From IMG/VR virus record IMGVR_UViG_3300034045_000104: DNA of 29,236 bases; one strand, 5' to 3'. The notes under the pieces were generated by a model. The model had not been told where the DNA came from, did no database searches, and worked only from the letters and a program-made list of their open reading frames with translations. This document shows, in pieces, positions 2,193-25,263 of the stretch (the stretch's first letter is position 1; each line of letters opens with the position of its first letter). This DNA is from a virus (lineage: Duplodnaviria > Heunggongvirae > Uroviricota > Caudoviricetes). The translations under genes were made by a program, and so were the position numbers.

Positions 2193-2687
2193 TTAGCGCA
2201 AAGGCTTATTTCTGCTTTCTCTATAAAACATATGTGAACCCATTTGTATTGCAAAAAGGGTTAAGTTTGAATCTGCCCAATCAGGGTTGGCATCTATTGC
2301 ATGATATAAAAGCACGTCATCTTTCTCAAATCCAGCAATATCAACGCCCTCCTCCCCATATAAAAAGGCATCAGCTACCAAGCCAGCTTGTATAAAAGCC
2401 TGTCTGTCTTGTGGTTTACTTAAGTCAATGACGTCCTTTTTGCCATCACACCACCAAGAATACGCACAAGAGCGCAATGTTAATTGATGAACCACTCCAT
2501 AAACAGTATCAGGGTAATATTTTGATTTAACTCTTAACACCACGTTATTAGCCACACCCACCATTGATGCTATCCCATCTCCCCTTGACTCTTGATATAT
2601 TACTACAGTCATGGTGTACAGATCATTATCTATTGGCTCATATTGTCCATTCATACCAGCGATTAATAAAGATATAAATTTTAGCAT
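2193..2687 (-). CDS. cell wall hydrolase, SleB/CwlJ (Hydrolase_2) family
   Basis: IYQESRG (catalytic Glu), VANNVVLRV..YPDTVYGVVHQ, AYSWWCDGK, YHA..NPDW, GSHMFY. Confidence 0.9.
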   Translation of the reverse strand: MLKFISLLIAGMNGQYEPIDNDLYTMTVVIYQESRGDGIASMVGVANNVVLRVKSKYYPDTVYGVVHQLTLRSCAYSWWCDGKKDVIDLSKPQDRQAFIQAGLVADAFLYGEEGVDIAGFEKDDVLLYHAIDANPDWADSNLTLFAIQMGSHMFYRESRNKPLR

Positions 2688-2786
2688 TTGATTGACTCCG
2701 ATTAATTATAAATAATTATAGAGTTGCTAAATAATGCCAATGTGGTTGGCACTGGCATAAATTAGCAATTTACCTACCCCATACAA

Positions 2787-3185
2787 TCAAAAGCATTCAT
2801 TGTTATCAATGCGCTGTTGGAACATAGTGCGCATACCGATTTCTATTTCCCAATCTTCAATATCATATCCACTCAAAGCCTCTGCGGTATCTTCTATACT
2901 GCATGTGATACTAGCCTCATGGTTATTTAACTCCCTTTGTATAATGGCATCTCTGCCATTTTCAGCAAAGTCTTGCTCTATACCATCACTTGTAACCTTG
3001 TTTAATCCAATTACCAGTGTGCCTGCATTAGCCTTAGGAACCACTATTCCATTACCTAGTGATACATATTCAACGCCTTTGACTTTATTTTTATCAAGTG
3101 CGGAATTTGAAAAAGCAAAAAACGCGCCTGTTTTATTCATAAGTTCGTTTCTGGCAGGAATGATATAATCTGTTAATGTTTTCAT
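2787..3185 (-). CDS. conserved MGE hypothetical protein
   Basis: 132-aa ORF; GAFFAFS and IIQRELNNHEA motifs recall a plasmid/phage family; promoter at 3216-3230. Confidence 0.75.
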   Translation of the reverse strand: MKTLTDYIIPARNELMNKTGAFFAFSNSALDKNKVKGVEYVSLGNGIVVPKANAGTLVIGLNKVTSDGIEQDFAENGRDAIIQRELNNHEASITCSIEDTAEALSGYDIEDWEIEIGMRTMFQQRIDNNECF

Positions 3186-3427: not shown

Positions 3428-4960
3428 TTAAAGGCTCTTTTTAAGATTCCTAACCATTACAGCGATTAATGATTCTATTGTTTTACGTGCAACACCTCTA
3501 TCAAACCACCTTAATAACTCACCATCATCGCTGTGCTCACCTACATACAAGCCAAAAGTTTTAACTCCTTTTTTAGAGTAATACCTTTTATTTATATCCC
3601 CATCACATATACCGCCATCAGTTACAATGAAATTTATTTTTGCATCTGCCATAATAGATAGATTATGATCAAAAGTTTCTTTAAGTCCCTCGCTATAGTG
3701 AACATTAGCAATTAATCCAATATCATCAGGCTTTAAAGGCATGGGTATTACTTCGCTTATACAATCACCTCTTGTAAGTATTACATTGCCTTGTATATAG
3801 CCTTGTTTGGCTAGATTACTAAAGATAGCAATAATAGTTCTAGCGCTTTCTATCGGTTCACCTCTCATACTTCCTGAACAATCAATAATTAAATTAGTTT
3901 TAAGTTTTGATTTTGACTTACTTTGTTTTGCACGATACATTTTTTCATCTTCACCACGAATGATACCGCGTATATTAAGGCGCTTACTTGGTCTAGATGT
4001 ACTTTCATAGGCGCTATGTGTTTTAAACGCACCTGCACATTGTTTTGTAAGGGTCTGAACTGCTTTTAAATCAATAGGCTCTGGCGCTTTAAGATAAAAT
4101 TCAGCGTTTTTATTGATTTCTGCAAACACATTTTTATTATCAGTGTCTAATTCATGTCCTGGCTTTGATTTACTTTGTTTTAGATTTTCCTCGGCTTGAG
4201 TATCTGCAATTGTATAGCTGTCTTTATCAATTCTTTCAAAATCACCACCTAAATCATTAATTGGCTCTAGGTAAATAGGCTCACATTGCTTTGAGCCCTT
4301 AATAGATTCATTTAATTCATCACTAAAATCATTTTGCTCGTTGTCTTGTGACTCGTCTTCATTTTCATCTAATTTAAAAATATCATTCCATTCTACAAGT
4401 ATCGGAATTAAATCTTCTGTTGTGGCACACGCTTGAAATCTAAGATAGAAATCATTAATAAGGTTAAGCACTGGCACCACTTGTGGCTCTACTATAGGCC
4501 ATGCACCCTCAAGGTGCTTTATATATAGCAATAAAGATTCTGGTGATCCTGTACATTTATGAACATGTAATGATGACCAATCAAAACTACGTTCTGTAAA
4601 GTCTCTAAATAAATTCTCAATTCTCACATCTTCAGCTAGATTTAAAAGTCCTTTTGATACTCCCATACATTTTGCTTGATTAATAACACCCTTTGCATCC
4701 TTTTGAGTGTATAGGCCATGACCTAATTCATGACAAAGTAAGGATTCAACAAGCTTTTGTTGATTGCCCTTAGAATCTTTGAACATACCATCACCTATAT
4801 AGATGTGGTGTTTGTTATTATGAAACATCCAACAAGCCGACTCATGGCCAAGCTTTACTTTTACCACATGATGATGATTTTTATCACGCCATTGGTTTAT
4901 GATGGCCTTTAACCATGAACGTCTGGTATTGTCTTTTAGTTGATTATAAGTAATTGACAT
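3428..4960 (-). CDS. vWA-domain protein with N-terminal HExxH metallopeptidase-like domain (CobT-like partner of a MoxR AAA+)
   Basis: LLCHELGH, NLAEDVRIEN, acidic linker, MIDAS motif IIDCSGSM, IVTDG. Confidence 0.85.
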   Translation of the reverse strand: MSITYNQLKDNTRRSWLKAIINQWRDKNHHHVVKVKLGHESACWMFHNNKHHIYIGDGMFKDSKGNQQKLVESLLCHELGHGLYTQKDAKGVINQAKCMGVSKGLLNLAEDVRIENLFRDFTERSFDWSSLHVHKCTGSPESLLLYIKHLEGAWPIVEPQVVPVLNLINDFYLRFQACATTEDLIPILVEWNDIFKLDENEDESQDNEQNDFSDELNESIKGSKQCEPIYLEPINDLGGDFERIDKDSYTIADTQAEENLKQSKSKPGHELDTDNKNVFAEINKNAEFYLKAPEPIDLKAVQTLTKQCAGAFKTHSAYESTSRPSKRLNIRGIIRGEDEKMYRAKQSKSKSKLKTNLIIDCSGSMRGEPIESARTIIAIFSNLAKQGYIQGNVILTRGDCISEVIPMPLKPDDIGLIANVHYSEGLKETFDHNLSIMADAKINFIVTDGGICDGDINKRYYSKKGVKTFGLYVGEHSDDGELLRWFDRGVARKTIESLIAVMVRNLKKSL

Positions 4961-5004
4961 ATTAAATATTTCATAATTTGATTAATAAATTATATTGATA
5001 CTAA

Positions 5005-5034
5005 AAAGCCATGTATTGTTATATACATGGCTTT
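5005..5034. terminator. hairpin/terminator between AAA+ gene and vWA promoter
   Basis: 12-bp perfect stem AAAGCCATGTAT/ATACATGGCTTT, 6-nt loop. Confidence 0.7.
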
Positions 5035-5047
5035 GAGAGGTGTTATA

Positions 5048-6394
5048 TTATTTAAATGCTGATTCATAGGCCATCATCACTGCTTCAATTTCATCTTGCA
5101 CTGGCTCCCCATCCATATCAACATCGACCCAATTAAGCGCACGTCTTTGAATTTCTGCGCCTATGTCATCTTTGTTTGATGAAAACTCTATAATTTCGCA
5201 CACATGTCTCATGGCTGACTTTTTATTAAGTTGACCCTCATCAACAAGGGCGTTAATAGTATTGTGAAACTTAATTAATGATTTAACTATTTTTTGAGGA
5301 TATTTTTTAAGCTTGGCCTGTTCTGTAGCTACATTAAGCAATAACTCTTTATTTTCTGGAAAATTACATATTATAAATCTATCACTCAAGGCGGTTTCTA
5401 GATTTTCAACGTCATAATCAGCGCCCACATTGGTTGTAGTGACCACCCATAACAGCTCTTTAGGTGCGCATAATACCTCTGTAACGGCCACGCCATCATT
5501 GACCTCTAAGAATCTGCCAGTATTTAAAAGATAGTTACCTTTGTTATCAGGTACAAGACAAGATACAAGGATATCTAATTGTTTTGATGGTATTCTTAAT
5601 ATTTCATCAATTAACAAGCAAGACTTAATACCTTTGCTTGCATTTCTAAAAGCAGCACCCAAAGCTCCATCAATCCAGAACACATCACCACCCTTGATGC
5701 TTTCATGTCCTAAGATGTCTAAGGTTTCAATTTGGTTGTGACCTGCTAAAAAGAATTTATCTACACCTAATGAATCTATAAACTCATGCGCCATATAGGT
5801 TTTACCGCAGCCCTTAGACCCTTGAAATTGGAGGTTTTTCTTAAAAGCATAATGTTTTAACATGTTTAAAGGCATTAGCACATCTTCATCCATTGCCATT
5901 ATAGGTTGCATAACTGCATTATAGCCATCAACAAGAGTTTCAAGTGATCTTGCACCATACATAAACAAGATTTGCTTTGTATGCTTACATGTGCGCTCTT
6001 TAGAACGAAAAAATATACAGCCTGTTGATTCATTAGCAGTTGACCCATAGGCATTAGATAGGCAATCCCTTTTAATCTTAGTGATTACATTTTTTTCTAA
6101 CACAACCTTTGCCAGTGCGCTATCTACACGCTTTATGGCCTCTTGTGAAGTAATTTTACCTTCTAAAAATGCATCACCACACCAATAATGAAATTCATCA
6201 CCATCATAGGCCAATACTACATTATGCACCTTTTCATCATACTGCATCTCATAGCATTCAATATAACTAAGATGGGATTGTTTTGTTGTGATGTCTGTAA
6301 AAGGAAACATGCCTTTATATCCACCAACCACCGTATACTCTGGTGCTTTAGGTGTTGAACCCGTTAGTCTTTTTCTGTATTCAGTTTCGTTCAT
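5048..6394 (-). CDS. MoxR/CbbQ/CobS-like AAA+ ATPase with N-terminal extension (degenerate SWIM-like Cys/His motif)
   Basis: Walker A GSKGCGKT, Walker B LLIDEILR, sensor TTTN, ALSDRF; GCIFF...TCKH upstream. Confidence 0.9.
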   Translation of the reverse strand: MNETEYRKRLTGSTPKAPEYTVVGGYKGMFPFTDITTKQSHLSYIECYEMQYDEKVHNVVLAYDGDEFHYWCGDAFLEGKITSQEAIKRVDSALAKVVLEKNVITKIKRDCLSNAYGSTANESTGCIFFRSKERTCKHTKQILFMYGARSLETLVDGYNAVMQPIMAMDEDVLMPLNMLKHYAFKKNLQFQGSKGCGKTYMAHEFIDSLGVDKFFLAGHNQIETLDILGHESIKGGDVFWIDGALGAAFRNASKGIKSCLLIDEILRIPSKQLDILVSCLVPDNKGNYLLNTGRFLEVNDGVAVTEVLCAPKELLWVVTTTNVGADYDVENLETALSDRFIICNFPENKELLLNVATEQAKLKKYPQKIVKSLIKFHNTINALVDEGQLNKKSAMRHVCEIIEFSSNKDDIGAEIQRRALNWVDVDMDGEPVQDEIEAVMMAYESAFK

Positions 6395-24354: not shown

Positions 24355-24507
24355 CTATAAATCACCAGATTTAATTCTGGTTCTTAAATCGGTTTTGCGT
24401 GACTGTCGCAAAGCCTTACCACTTTTTACGTGGACAGACCCTTTGCCCATTAATGGATGATTCCAAAACAGATTTCTCACAACTTTCTTATTTTTATTGT
24501 TTTTCAT
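24355..24507 (-). CDS. small basic protein (start revised to ATG 24507, 50 aa)
   Basis: RNLFWNHPLMGKGSVHVKSGKALRQ; promoter 24535-24549 lies inside the longer track ORF. Confidence 0.65.
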   Translation of the reverse strand: MKNNKNKKVVRNLFWNHPLMGKGSVHVKSGKALRQSRKTDLRTRIKSGDL

Positions 24508-24599
24508 TCCAATCACCACTAATATAATTACTAGATTATAGGCATGCCACAACCCCATAAAAAAACACTTTCATTTATAAGTAAAGTCACATATAATTA

Positions 24600-24716
24600 G
24601 CACTCTGCTGAATAAGCAGCTTAGAAAATAATATTTATAAAAATCCATTTACTGCTGAATAAGCAGCTTAGAAAGTTATAATTATATTATTAACCACCCA
24701 ATAGGTGGCAAAACCC
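24600..24716 (+). CRISPR. orphan mini-array of type I-F-like CRISPR repeats (2 good + 1 degenerate) with short spacers
   Basis: GCACTCTGCTGAATAAGCAGCTTAGAAA (24600-24627) and ATTTACTGCTGAATAAGCAGCTTAGAAA (24647-24674; 22/28 to GTTCACTGCCGTATAGGCAGCTAAGAAA); third hairpin CCACC-CAATA-GGTGG (24694-24708); no cas genes in the window. Confidence 0.7.
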
Positions 24717-24734
24717 GTTTTATAAACGGGTTTT
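24710..24734. terminator. bidirectional intrinsic terminator
   Basis: AAAACCCGTTT/AAACGGGTTTT. Confidence 0.8.
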
Positions 24735-25075
24735 TATTTGCCCACATGATTTAAAAATGAAGGTATATCAGGCTCACCACACTCAACCCAAGCTCCACTC
24801 TTCTCAGATACCTCCAACCATATATCAACAGACGAGAACCACACCGTTCCATTGACAAACATATAGTCATCATCACTAGGGAACTCTTCATAATCAAAAT
24901 CCAATTTATCTAGGAACTCATTAAAATCGCCGTGAGAATAACCCTGTTTCAGCATAATACAGTCTTTTTGTGGCAATAAAGGCTCATCCGAAACATGAAC
25001 AATAGCACATTTAATAGAATAATTACCGGCATCGGACAGAGCCTCCAACAGCTCTTGTTTTGCATTTCTAGACAT
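24734..25075 (-). CDS. conserved phage-type hypothetical protein (start revised to ATG 25075)
   Basis: NAKQELL...IKCA...FLDKLDFDY...GTVWF...W...EPDIP pattern; promoter 25106-25120 inside the longer track ORF. Confidence 0.75.
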   Translation of the reverse strand: MSRNAKQELLEALSDAGNYSIKCAIVHVSDEPLLPQKDCIMLKQGYSHGDFNEFLDKLDFDYEEFPSDDDYMFVNGTVWFSSVDIWLEVSEKSGAWVECGEPDIPSFLNHVGK

Positions 25076-25263
25076 TCTAAAACTCCAAATATTTATGTTA
25101 AAATCATTATAGTGAAACCATATAATCAACCATTAATACAAATAAACCAATTCCACTAGCAACATCACATCCAACATTGATGATATATATTCGTTATTTA
25201 TACAATCAAATTTAAAACTATTGCCATTTATAAAATGTATTTTCATAAACATAATTTGATCGT

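Follow-up and report, generated by a model that had tools for sequence, protein, structure and literature searches.

A mobile-element array of type I-F CRISPR repeat mimics that most likely encodes crRNA-like RNA anti-CRISPRs

The array and its genomic surroundings

The DNA analyzed here in its entirety, a stretch of 29,236 nucleotides referred to below as the window, encodes a DotM-type (DotM_C) T4BSS protein, a cell-wall hydrolase, an AAA_5 ATPase and an orphan C5 methylase. The remainder of the window is occupied by a long series of small minus-strand open reading frames (ORFs) without known families. The hydrolase (Hydrolase_2) and a DUF7659 protein adjoin the DotM gene on the minus strand (2193-3185), as expected in a conjugation region. 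On the same strand, a 448-amino-acid AAA_5 ATPase (dynein-related/MoxR/McrB-like) is followed by a 510-amino-acid protein without a Pfam family (3428-6394), and the two genes may together form a module for defence or anti-defence. The DotM protein is placed taxonomically only as 'Pseudomonadota' (Atlas) and has no match in 400 sampled genomes of one class, and neither it nor the region yields a near or protein-level match in plasmid and phage collections.

Within the window lies a short array of units resembling type I-F CRISPR repeats (Table 1). The ORFs that flank it all run on the minus strand, opposite to the array, and the ten nearest belong to no Pfam family. A Pfam scan of 40 window ORFs, including every ORF of at least 125 amino acids, detects no Cas family, and it shows no csy or cas gene across the 24.6 kb upstream or the 4.5 kb downstream of the array. 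Searches of the window by tblastn (E 0.01) with the AcrIF24 homologues of two related loci described below (L020 and L010) and with 181 other neighbour proteins return no match at all, and no acrIF24 homologue is seen there. Three neighbours of the array were compared with the PDB and have no relative there, none resembling a solved Acr, and exact-protein look-ups of three neighbour proteins match nothing. The nearest neighbour is a convergent minus-strand ORF (24734-25129) whose 114-amino-acid acidic product (24734-25078) has a sole PHROGs match, phrog_3972 (function unknown; E 3.8e-5), and no relatives in the PDB or IMG/VR; by its position alone it is a possible Acr candidate.

Table 1. Coordinates of the array and its transcription signals within the window
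Feature	Position	Strand	Description
-10 box	24592-24597	+	TATAAT, perfect; 7 nt 5' of the first stem
Pseudo-repeat 1	24600-24627	+	Flank GCACT; hairpin CTGCT-GAATA-AGCAG, 24605-24619; handle CTTAGAAA, 24620-24627
Pseudo-spacer 1	24628-24646	+	ATAATATTTATAAAAATCC, 19 nt
Pseudo-repeat 2	24647-24674	+	Flank ATTTA; hairpin, 24652-24666; handle, 24667-24674
Pseudo-spacer 2	24675-24688	+	GTTATAATTATATT, 14 nt; 19 nt from handle to next stem
Terminal pseudo-repeat 3, without handle	24689-24708	+	Flank ATTAA; hairpin CCACC-CAATA-GGTGG, 24694-24708
Bidirectional intrinsic terminator	24710-24739	both	AAAACCCGTTT-TAT-AAACGGGTTTT, then TATTT

The core of the array is a 23-nt sequence, CTGCTGAATAAGCAGCTTAGAAA, present as two exact plus-strand copies (24605-24627 and 24652-24674) with a period of 47 nt. 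No further copy is found in the window at up to three mismatches, and none occurs in 100 dinucleotide-preserving shuffles. Each copy comprises a 5-bp stem, a 5-nt loop and then CTTAGAAA, the handle, which is perfect at 8/8 positions in both pseudo-repeats. The 28-mer that includes the second copy (24647-24674) differs from the canonical type I-F repeat, GTTCACTGCCGTATAGGCAGCTAAGAAA, at six positions and is thus 22/28 identical to it. In Rfam, this 28-mer matches CRISPR-DR4, the type I-F repeat model, at 37.3 bits (gathering score 35), and the first copy matches model positions 6-28 at 26 bits; CRISPR-DR4 is the sole Rfam family above threshold in the entire window.

The third hairpin has the same geometry and no handle. 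Hairpins with a 5-bp stem, a 5-nt loop and a basal C-G pair occur in the window at 3.1e-4 per position, and the probability that this one falls in the correct 8-nt slot by chance is approximately 0.0025. Folding of the plus-strand RNA yields precisely four hairpins, those of the three units plus that of the terminator, with z = -5.2 relative to shuffled sequences, and the hairpin of pseudo-repeat 1 is among those present in the computed fold. An earlier, sequence-only reading of this DNA had described the perfect 23-bp direct repeat at 24605 and 24652, the 22/28 match to the canonical repeat, a compensatory stem (CTGCT/AGCAG) with its basal C-G pair, GAAUA loop and 8-nt handle, the third hairpin at 24694-24708, and spacers of 19 and 14 nt, and every one of these statements is borne out.

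The two pseudo-spacer lengths count the 5 nt before each stem as repeat. Both pseudo-spacers are nearly pure A/T, and therefore the promoter-like (-10-like) boxes inside them mean little. A minimum-free-energy fold of 24627-24691 pairs pseudo-spacers 1 and 2 around hairpin 2, a pairing of A/T-only sequence that may be due to chance.

Transcription of the array is predicted from the TATAAT box to start at or just before the first hairpin. The box has no convincing -35 partner and the promoter scan did not report the site. At 9/25 related loci the first stem is preceded by a -10-like box whose end lies 7-16 nt away, compared with 6.8% of random positions, and this enrichment backs the promoter call; related loci without such a box appear to be co-transcribed with an upstream gene. 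Downstream, an 11-bp perfect inverted repeat (24710-24734; arms 3 nt apart) and a T run form a terminator that is present in the RNA folds. The terminator scan did not call it, probably because its A/T pairs consume the T run. The convergent ORF shares this terminator with the array, and its stop codon and the right arm of the terminator overlap. The sequence-only reading had also credited the unit with a TATAAT box and a terminator of its own, an orientation opposite to the surrounding genes and a window free of cas genes; these points stand, though a good -35 box is lacking and neither signal was listed by its respective scan. On the minus strand, a promoter-like site (24684-24711; TTGCCA, 16 nt, TAATAT; 9/12), which is a consensus match only, would drive an RNA antisense to the array and into a small ORF (24355-24558).

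Related loci and plasmid-borne arrays

The exact 23-nt unit occurs at 24 loci besides the window, seven in a species-genome collection and 17 in IMG/VR. Examined in register, nearly all of these are short-spacer mini-arrays of one to six units with a handle-less terminal hairpin, and in many an intrinsic terminator follows; handle-less terminal units, such as pseudo-repeat 3 of the window, are the rule among them. The distance from the end of the handle to the next stem is mostly 24-25 nt in the related loci, with 24 nt the mode in related mobile-element arrays, and pseudo-spacer 1 of the window gives 24 nt. A minor class with 19 nt (42-nt period) is found twice in L016 and in the Shewanella plasmid array L047, as in pseudo-spacer 2 of the window. 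The genuine arrays in L007 and L044-L046 have a period of 60 nt.

Selection at the RNA level was assessed by anchoring on the handle alone, at sites in the related regions with at least 7/8 matches to CTTAGAAA. A perfect 5-bp stem lies immediately 5' of the handle at 59 of these 66 sites. Among the 20 distinct hairpins so collected, neither the basal C-G pair nor the A that ends the loop varies, and pairs 2, 3 and 5 covary by compensatory substitution, which we count as RNA-level selection. The CCACC/GGTGG stem of the third window hairpin serves as the terminal unit in L014 and bears a full CTTAGAAA handle in the array of the Shewanella baltica plasmid pSB01-1, and for this reason we class the window hairpin as a terminal pseudo-repeat. 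The C with which its loop begins is absent from the 20 other hairpins, and as judged from its sequence hairpin 3 is a candidate Cas6f substrate only.

Several related loci reveal what such arrays accompany or resemble. In a Competibacteraceae metagenome-assembled genome (L004) and in Endozoicomonas (L007), the arrays lie directly 5' of csy1 (Pfam Cas_Csy1) and are host regulators; CC-flanked partial targets are found nearby, with mismatches at every sixth position as is typical of type I-F. At L020, a protein matching AcrIF24 structures (PDB 7xi1, E 5e-48) is encoded two genes ahead of the array, and L010 carries a homologous gene pair. The array L001 resides on a Rep3 plasmid of Zooshikella, the chromosome of which has csy1 with an adjacent regulator RNA. 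Pseudo-spacer 1 of this plasmid array (20 nt) reproduces the 27-nt guide of the host almost exactly, in truncated form, and matches the CC-flanked chromosomal target of the host regulator at 16/17 effective positions. In a four-spacer array on an island of Aggregatibacter kilianii (L002), the first 14 nt of pseudo-spacer 3 are those of the csy1-adjacent regulator RNA in two other Aggregatibacter genomes, and the target that this pseudo-spacer matches lies immediately 5' of the probable csy1 start. Other members of the family thus copy host guide seeds, and the sequence and build of the window unit place it in a family that holds both host regulators and demonstrable mobile-element mimics.

Two further ideas about pseudo-spacers were discarded. 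The notion that pseudo-spacers starting with AT mark ATGG start-codon targets was dropped, as the Aggregatibacter target lies upstream of the likely csy1 start, and a 10-nt in-register similarity between pseudo-spacer 2 of the window and a pseudo-spacer of L022 is too weak for A/T-only sequence.

Variations on the mini-array design are seen among the IMG/VR loci. In L023 (3300035698_018667, 680-922), an identical repeat unit recurs six times in tandem, every 44 nt, and the 16-nt pseudo-spacers are almost the same throughout (ATTATCTKGTAAAAAT, with CG in a single copy); this looks like amplification of one guide, for dosage rather than multiplexing. Four related phage loci (L008, L012, L017 and L018) follow the first pseudo-spacer with a degenerate hairpin, CTACT-TGCTA-AGTAA, in which the basal pair is broken, and then with a normal terminal unit, which results in an apparent 42-nt gap; the divergent upstream gene of these loci begins MASTAAER.

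Plasmids, conjugative and otherwise, carry similar arrays as well, one of which adjoins an antirestriction gene. The MOBF/MPF_F conjugative plasmid pSB01-1 of S. baltica (NZ_CP146611.1; L047:3999-4380) carries an array of eight I-F-like units, complete with terminator, in which the pseudo-spacers are short; like the window array, it is oriented opposite to small flanking genes. Its stems are CCGCT, CCACC, CTGCC, CCGCC and CTACT, and its handles are mostly within two mismatches of CTTAGAAA. On pRSE40 of Salmonella enterica (NZ_CP034699.1; L048:2450-2640), four I-F-like units and a terminator make up a mini-array that has a DUF1456 gene on one side and a gene annotated as antirestriction on the other; a hok toxin gene is not far away, and the neighbourhood looks like one devoted to anti-defence. 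The Thiomicrorhabdus plasmid pTmrp1 has one pseudo-spacer plus a terminal hairpin.

Predicted RNAs and class assignment

In type I-F repeats, the Cas6f cleavage site is the 3' base of the stem. In pseudo-repeat 1, the predicted cut would fall after 24619, and with a second cut after hairpin 2 the product would be a 47-nt RNA (24620-24666) composed of the 8-nt handle, the 19-nt pseudo-spacer 1 and 20 nt of flank and hairpin. A second predicted RNA of 42 nt (24667-24708) would carry the handle, the 14-nt pseudo-spacer 2 and the variant hairpin 3.

The published class that these predictions most closely recall is CracrIF, the crRNA-like RNAs of mobile elements with a mature size of 46-49 nt (Liu et al., bioRxiv 10.1101/2024.10.29.618823). 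Viral CracrIF pseudo-spacers are mostly 17-21 nt long with a median of 19, compared with 23-27 nt in host CreA/CreR, and CracrIF RNAs build Csy complexes with four Csy3 (Cas7f) subunits rather than six; they both repress cas or creT promoters and compete with immune crRNAs (10.1101/2024.10.29.618823). The window array is likewise borne by a mobile element, outside any cas locus in view, and has the order pseudo-repeat, pseudo-spacer, pseudo-repeat with the I-F hairpin and handle. Its I-F repeat-like units, its short first pseudo-spacer of 19 nt, the predicted 47-nt RNA, the multi-unit transcription unit and carriage by a plasmid-like element all have counterparts among CracrIFs, and its repeat variant is that of the acrIF24-linked array L020. 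On the strength of repeat identity, size class and family membership, we conclude that the unit is most likely an array of the CracrIF type, with which a mobile element would counter type I-F systems by means of crRNA-like RNA anti-CRISPRs.

The window array also differs from described CracrIFs in four respects. The searches made here found no seed match to a known CreA/CreR or to a cas/creT promoter; the window has no acrIF24, linkage to which is frequent in Cracrs, although not obligatory; the carrier is an uncultivated T4BSS (DotM) element; and pseudo-spacer 2, closed by the CCACC/GGTGG stem, is only 14 nt long. This length is below the usual 17-21 nt range, yet it recurs in L016 and L047.

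The sequence-only reading had proposed an RNA anti-CRISPR and, more specifically, a Racr. The first part stands, as the unit is a cas-less, element-borne I-F repeat mimic with its own signals, but the Racr label does not. Racrs do share with the window array repeat mimicry by a mobile element, their own promoter and competition for Cas6f and Cas7f. RacrIF1, however, consists of a single repeat, and the RNA made from it, lacking a 5' handle, excludes Cas5f and Cas8f and forms instead Cas6f plus a long Cas7f filament (Camara-Wilpert et al., 2023; PMC10651486). The window has two full repeats and a terminal hairpin, and cutting of unit 1 would leave an inter-unit RNA that begins with a perfect CUUAGAAA 5' handle and continues through the 19-nt pseudo-spacer to a hairpin, in other words a crRNA-like RNA that is complete, though short. 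The same reading had considered a tandem multi-unit array on a type IVB conjugative element possibly new to the literature. Multi-spacer 'Cracr arrays' make up 76/221 of the acrIF24-linked cracr genes, and 16/219 cracr candidates are plasmid-borne (10.1101/2024.10.29.618823); similar multi-unit arrays are found on the Shewanella and Salmonella plasmids described above, and phage mini-arrays were reported by Shmakov et al. (2023). As multi-unit arrays and plasmid-borne Cracrs have each been described previously, the window provides a new example and no new principle.

The viral mini-arrays of Shmakov et al. (2023; 10.1101/2023.03.03.530964 / PMC10120712), which have truncated spacers, copy host I-F1 regulatory mini-arrays and are predicted to repress effector expression. 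They resemble the window unit in being carried by mobile elements and in having a truncated spacer flanked by two units that look like repeats, but they are defined by seed identity with a host mini-array, and no such link was found for the window unit. The host CreR/CreA crlRNAs (L004, L007, L029 and L045) have in common with it the hairpin variant, the handle and a promoter a few nucleotides before the first stem. Their position, in contrast, is between cas2/3 or an array and csy1, and their pseudo-spacers are mostly longer. The carrier of the window unit is a conjugative element, and neither csy nor cas genes lie near the unit within the window; this identity was rejected.

A canonical type I-F array has 28-nt repeats, spacers of approximately 32 nt, a 60-nt period and cas genes or a leader, whereas the periods in the window are 47 and 42 nt and no cas gene is present there; we rejected this identity as well. 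A related proposal sees in the unit a type I-F array that has decayed or been orphaned, or else a mini-array used offensively against competing elements. Orphan CRISPR arrays are known on mobile elements, which counts in its favour, as does the genuine I-F repeat similarity detected by CRISPR-DR4. Against it, the spacers measure 19 and 14 nt rather than 32, and the same short periods recur in more than 20 independent loci. The unit moreover has a dedicated -10 box and terminator and no cas gene in the window, its terminal unit ends exactly at the hairpin, and decay would not preserve 23-nt identity between two units with perfect handles. We consider this proposal scarcely tenable.

Target searches and proposed mechanism

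Compared with the window itself, neither pseudo-spacer has a target above shuffled-spacer controls. In IMG/VR, the handle plus the seed of pseudo-spacer 1 gives four chance matches without a hairpin, and the handle plus the seed of pseudo-spacer 2 gives none. A degenerate handle plus seed returns 13 matches among metagenome contigs, all attributable to chance except one, which is a spacer of an ordinary I-F array. In 401 sampled genomes of one order there are two matches, compared with three in the reversed-pattern control, and neither has an I-F hairpin. The published Cracr criterion calls for at least nine PAM-proximal matches to CreA/CreR (10.1101/2024.10.29.618823); since these searches gave no seed match, the window unit would by that measure stay a candidate or be set aside as a 'likely Racr'.

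These searches bear upon two other accounts of function. In the first, the RNAs act purely as decoys, Racr-like in effect, which sequester Cas6f, Cas7f and perhaps Cas5f and Cas8f, and the pseudo-spacers have no specific target. Low-complexity A/T pseudo-spacers and the lack of a target in the window, IMG/VR, the metagenome contigs and the sampled genomes agree with it; Liu et al. classed hits without seed matches as likely Racrs and remark that spacer-mutated Cracrs still sequester Cas proteins (10.1101/2024.10.29.618823). The phage locus L023, with its six near-identical units and 16-nt pseudo-spacer, resembles dosage. A decoy, on the other hand, would need neither a conserved 5' handle nor a fixed short length, as RacrIF1 acts without a handle, whereas the window keeps its spacing at the family mode of 24 nt and other family members demonstrably copy host guide seeds. 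A pure decoy is rather unlikely in our estimation.

The second account holds that the RNA is a guide that borrows the host Csy complex to repress a gene unrelated to CRISPR, either another host defence or a gene of the element outside the window. Host crlRNAs have been described as supervising other defence systems (10.1101/2024.12.27.630466), and 30% of multi-spacer arrays are without any spacer that has a predicted target (Liu et al., 10.1101/2024.10.29.618823). The self-target search, moreover, covered only 29 kb of an element that exceeds 100 kb. Within those 29 kb, however, there is no self-target, and in both related cases open to testing the targets lie beside csy1; we judge such a repressor to be quite improbable. 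Equally little credence attaches to the broader suggestion that recipient Csy serves as a programmable repressor of genes other than cas or creT and that the 42-nt CCACC/GGTGG unit represents an uncharacterised subclass with three Cas7f subunits.

With moderate confidence, we favour the CracrIF mechanism as a whole, in which a short handle-bearing guide forms a short Csy complex that combines competition with promoter repression. In the sequence of events that we infer, from expression through Cas6f processing and complex size to, above all, the promoter target, the element would enter a type I-F cell, where the -10 box of the unit would direct transcription from the first hairpin onward. Host Cas6f would cut after each hairpin and remain bound to it, releasing the 47-nt RNA and probably also the 42-nt RNA. 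Both RNAs would retain the 5' handle, so that Cas5f and Cas8f would be able to bind, and the resulting short Csy complex would contain approximately four (or three) Cas7f subunits instead of six. Such complexes would divert Cas proteins from immune crRNAs and could not license cutting by Cas2/3. By analogy with the published Cracrs, they may also occupy and repress a host promoter, either that of cas/csy or that of a creT-like toxin.

The use of guide-RNA look-alikes to hijack the CRISPR proteins of a recipient is a counter-defence published between 2023 and 2026. The general idea, that a cas-less I-F repeat mimic acts as an RNA anti-CRISPR, is supported here by array anatomy and family membership. 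With the window, the known carriers of crRNA-like RNA anti-CRISPRs would come to include a T4BSS conjugative element, large and uncultivated, with no acrIF24 in view, and the interesting residue consists of the target, the absent acrIF24 and the 42-nt unit with its 14-nt pseudo-spacer.

Plasmid-borne arrays of this kind are easily overlooked: in the gene tables examined for pSB01-1, pRSE40 and pTmrp1, no feature is listed at the array. A handle-to-stem distance of approximately 24 nt (sometimes 19), together with a handle-less terminal hairpin, offers a signature that is independent of any target. The hairpin CUGCU-GAAUA-AGCAG followed by CUUAGAAA is found both in regulator RNAs of hosts and in the mimics carried by mobile elements, in Gamma- and Betaproteobacteria that are only distantly related.
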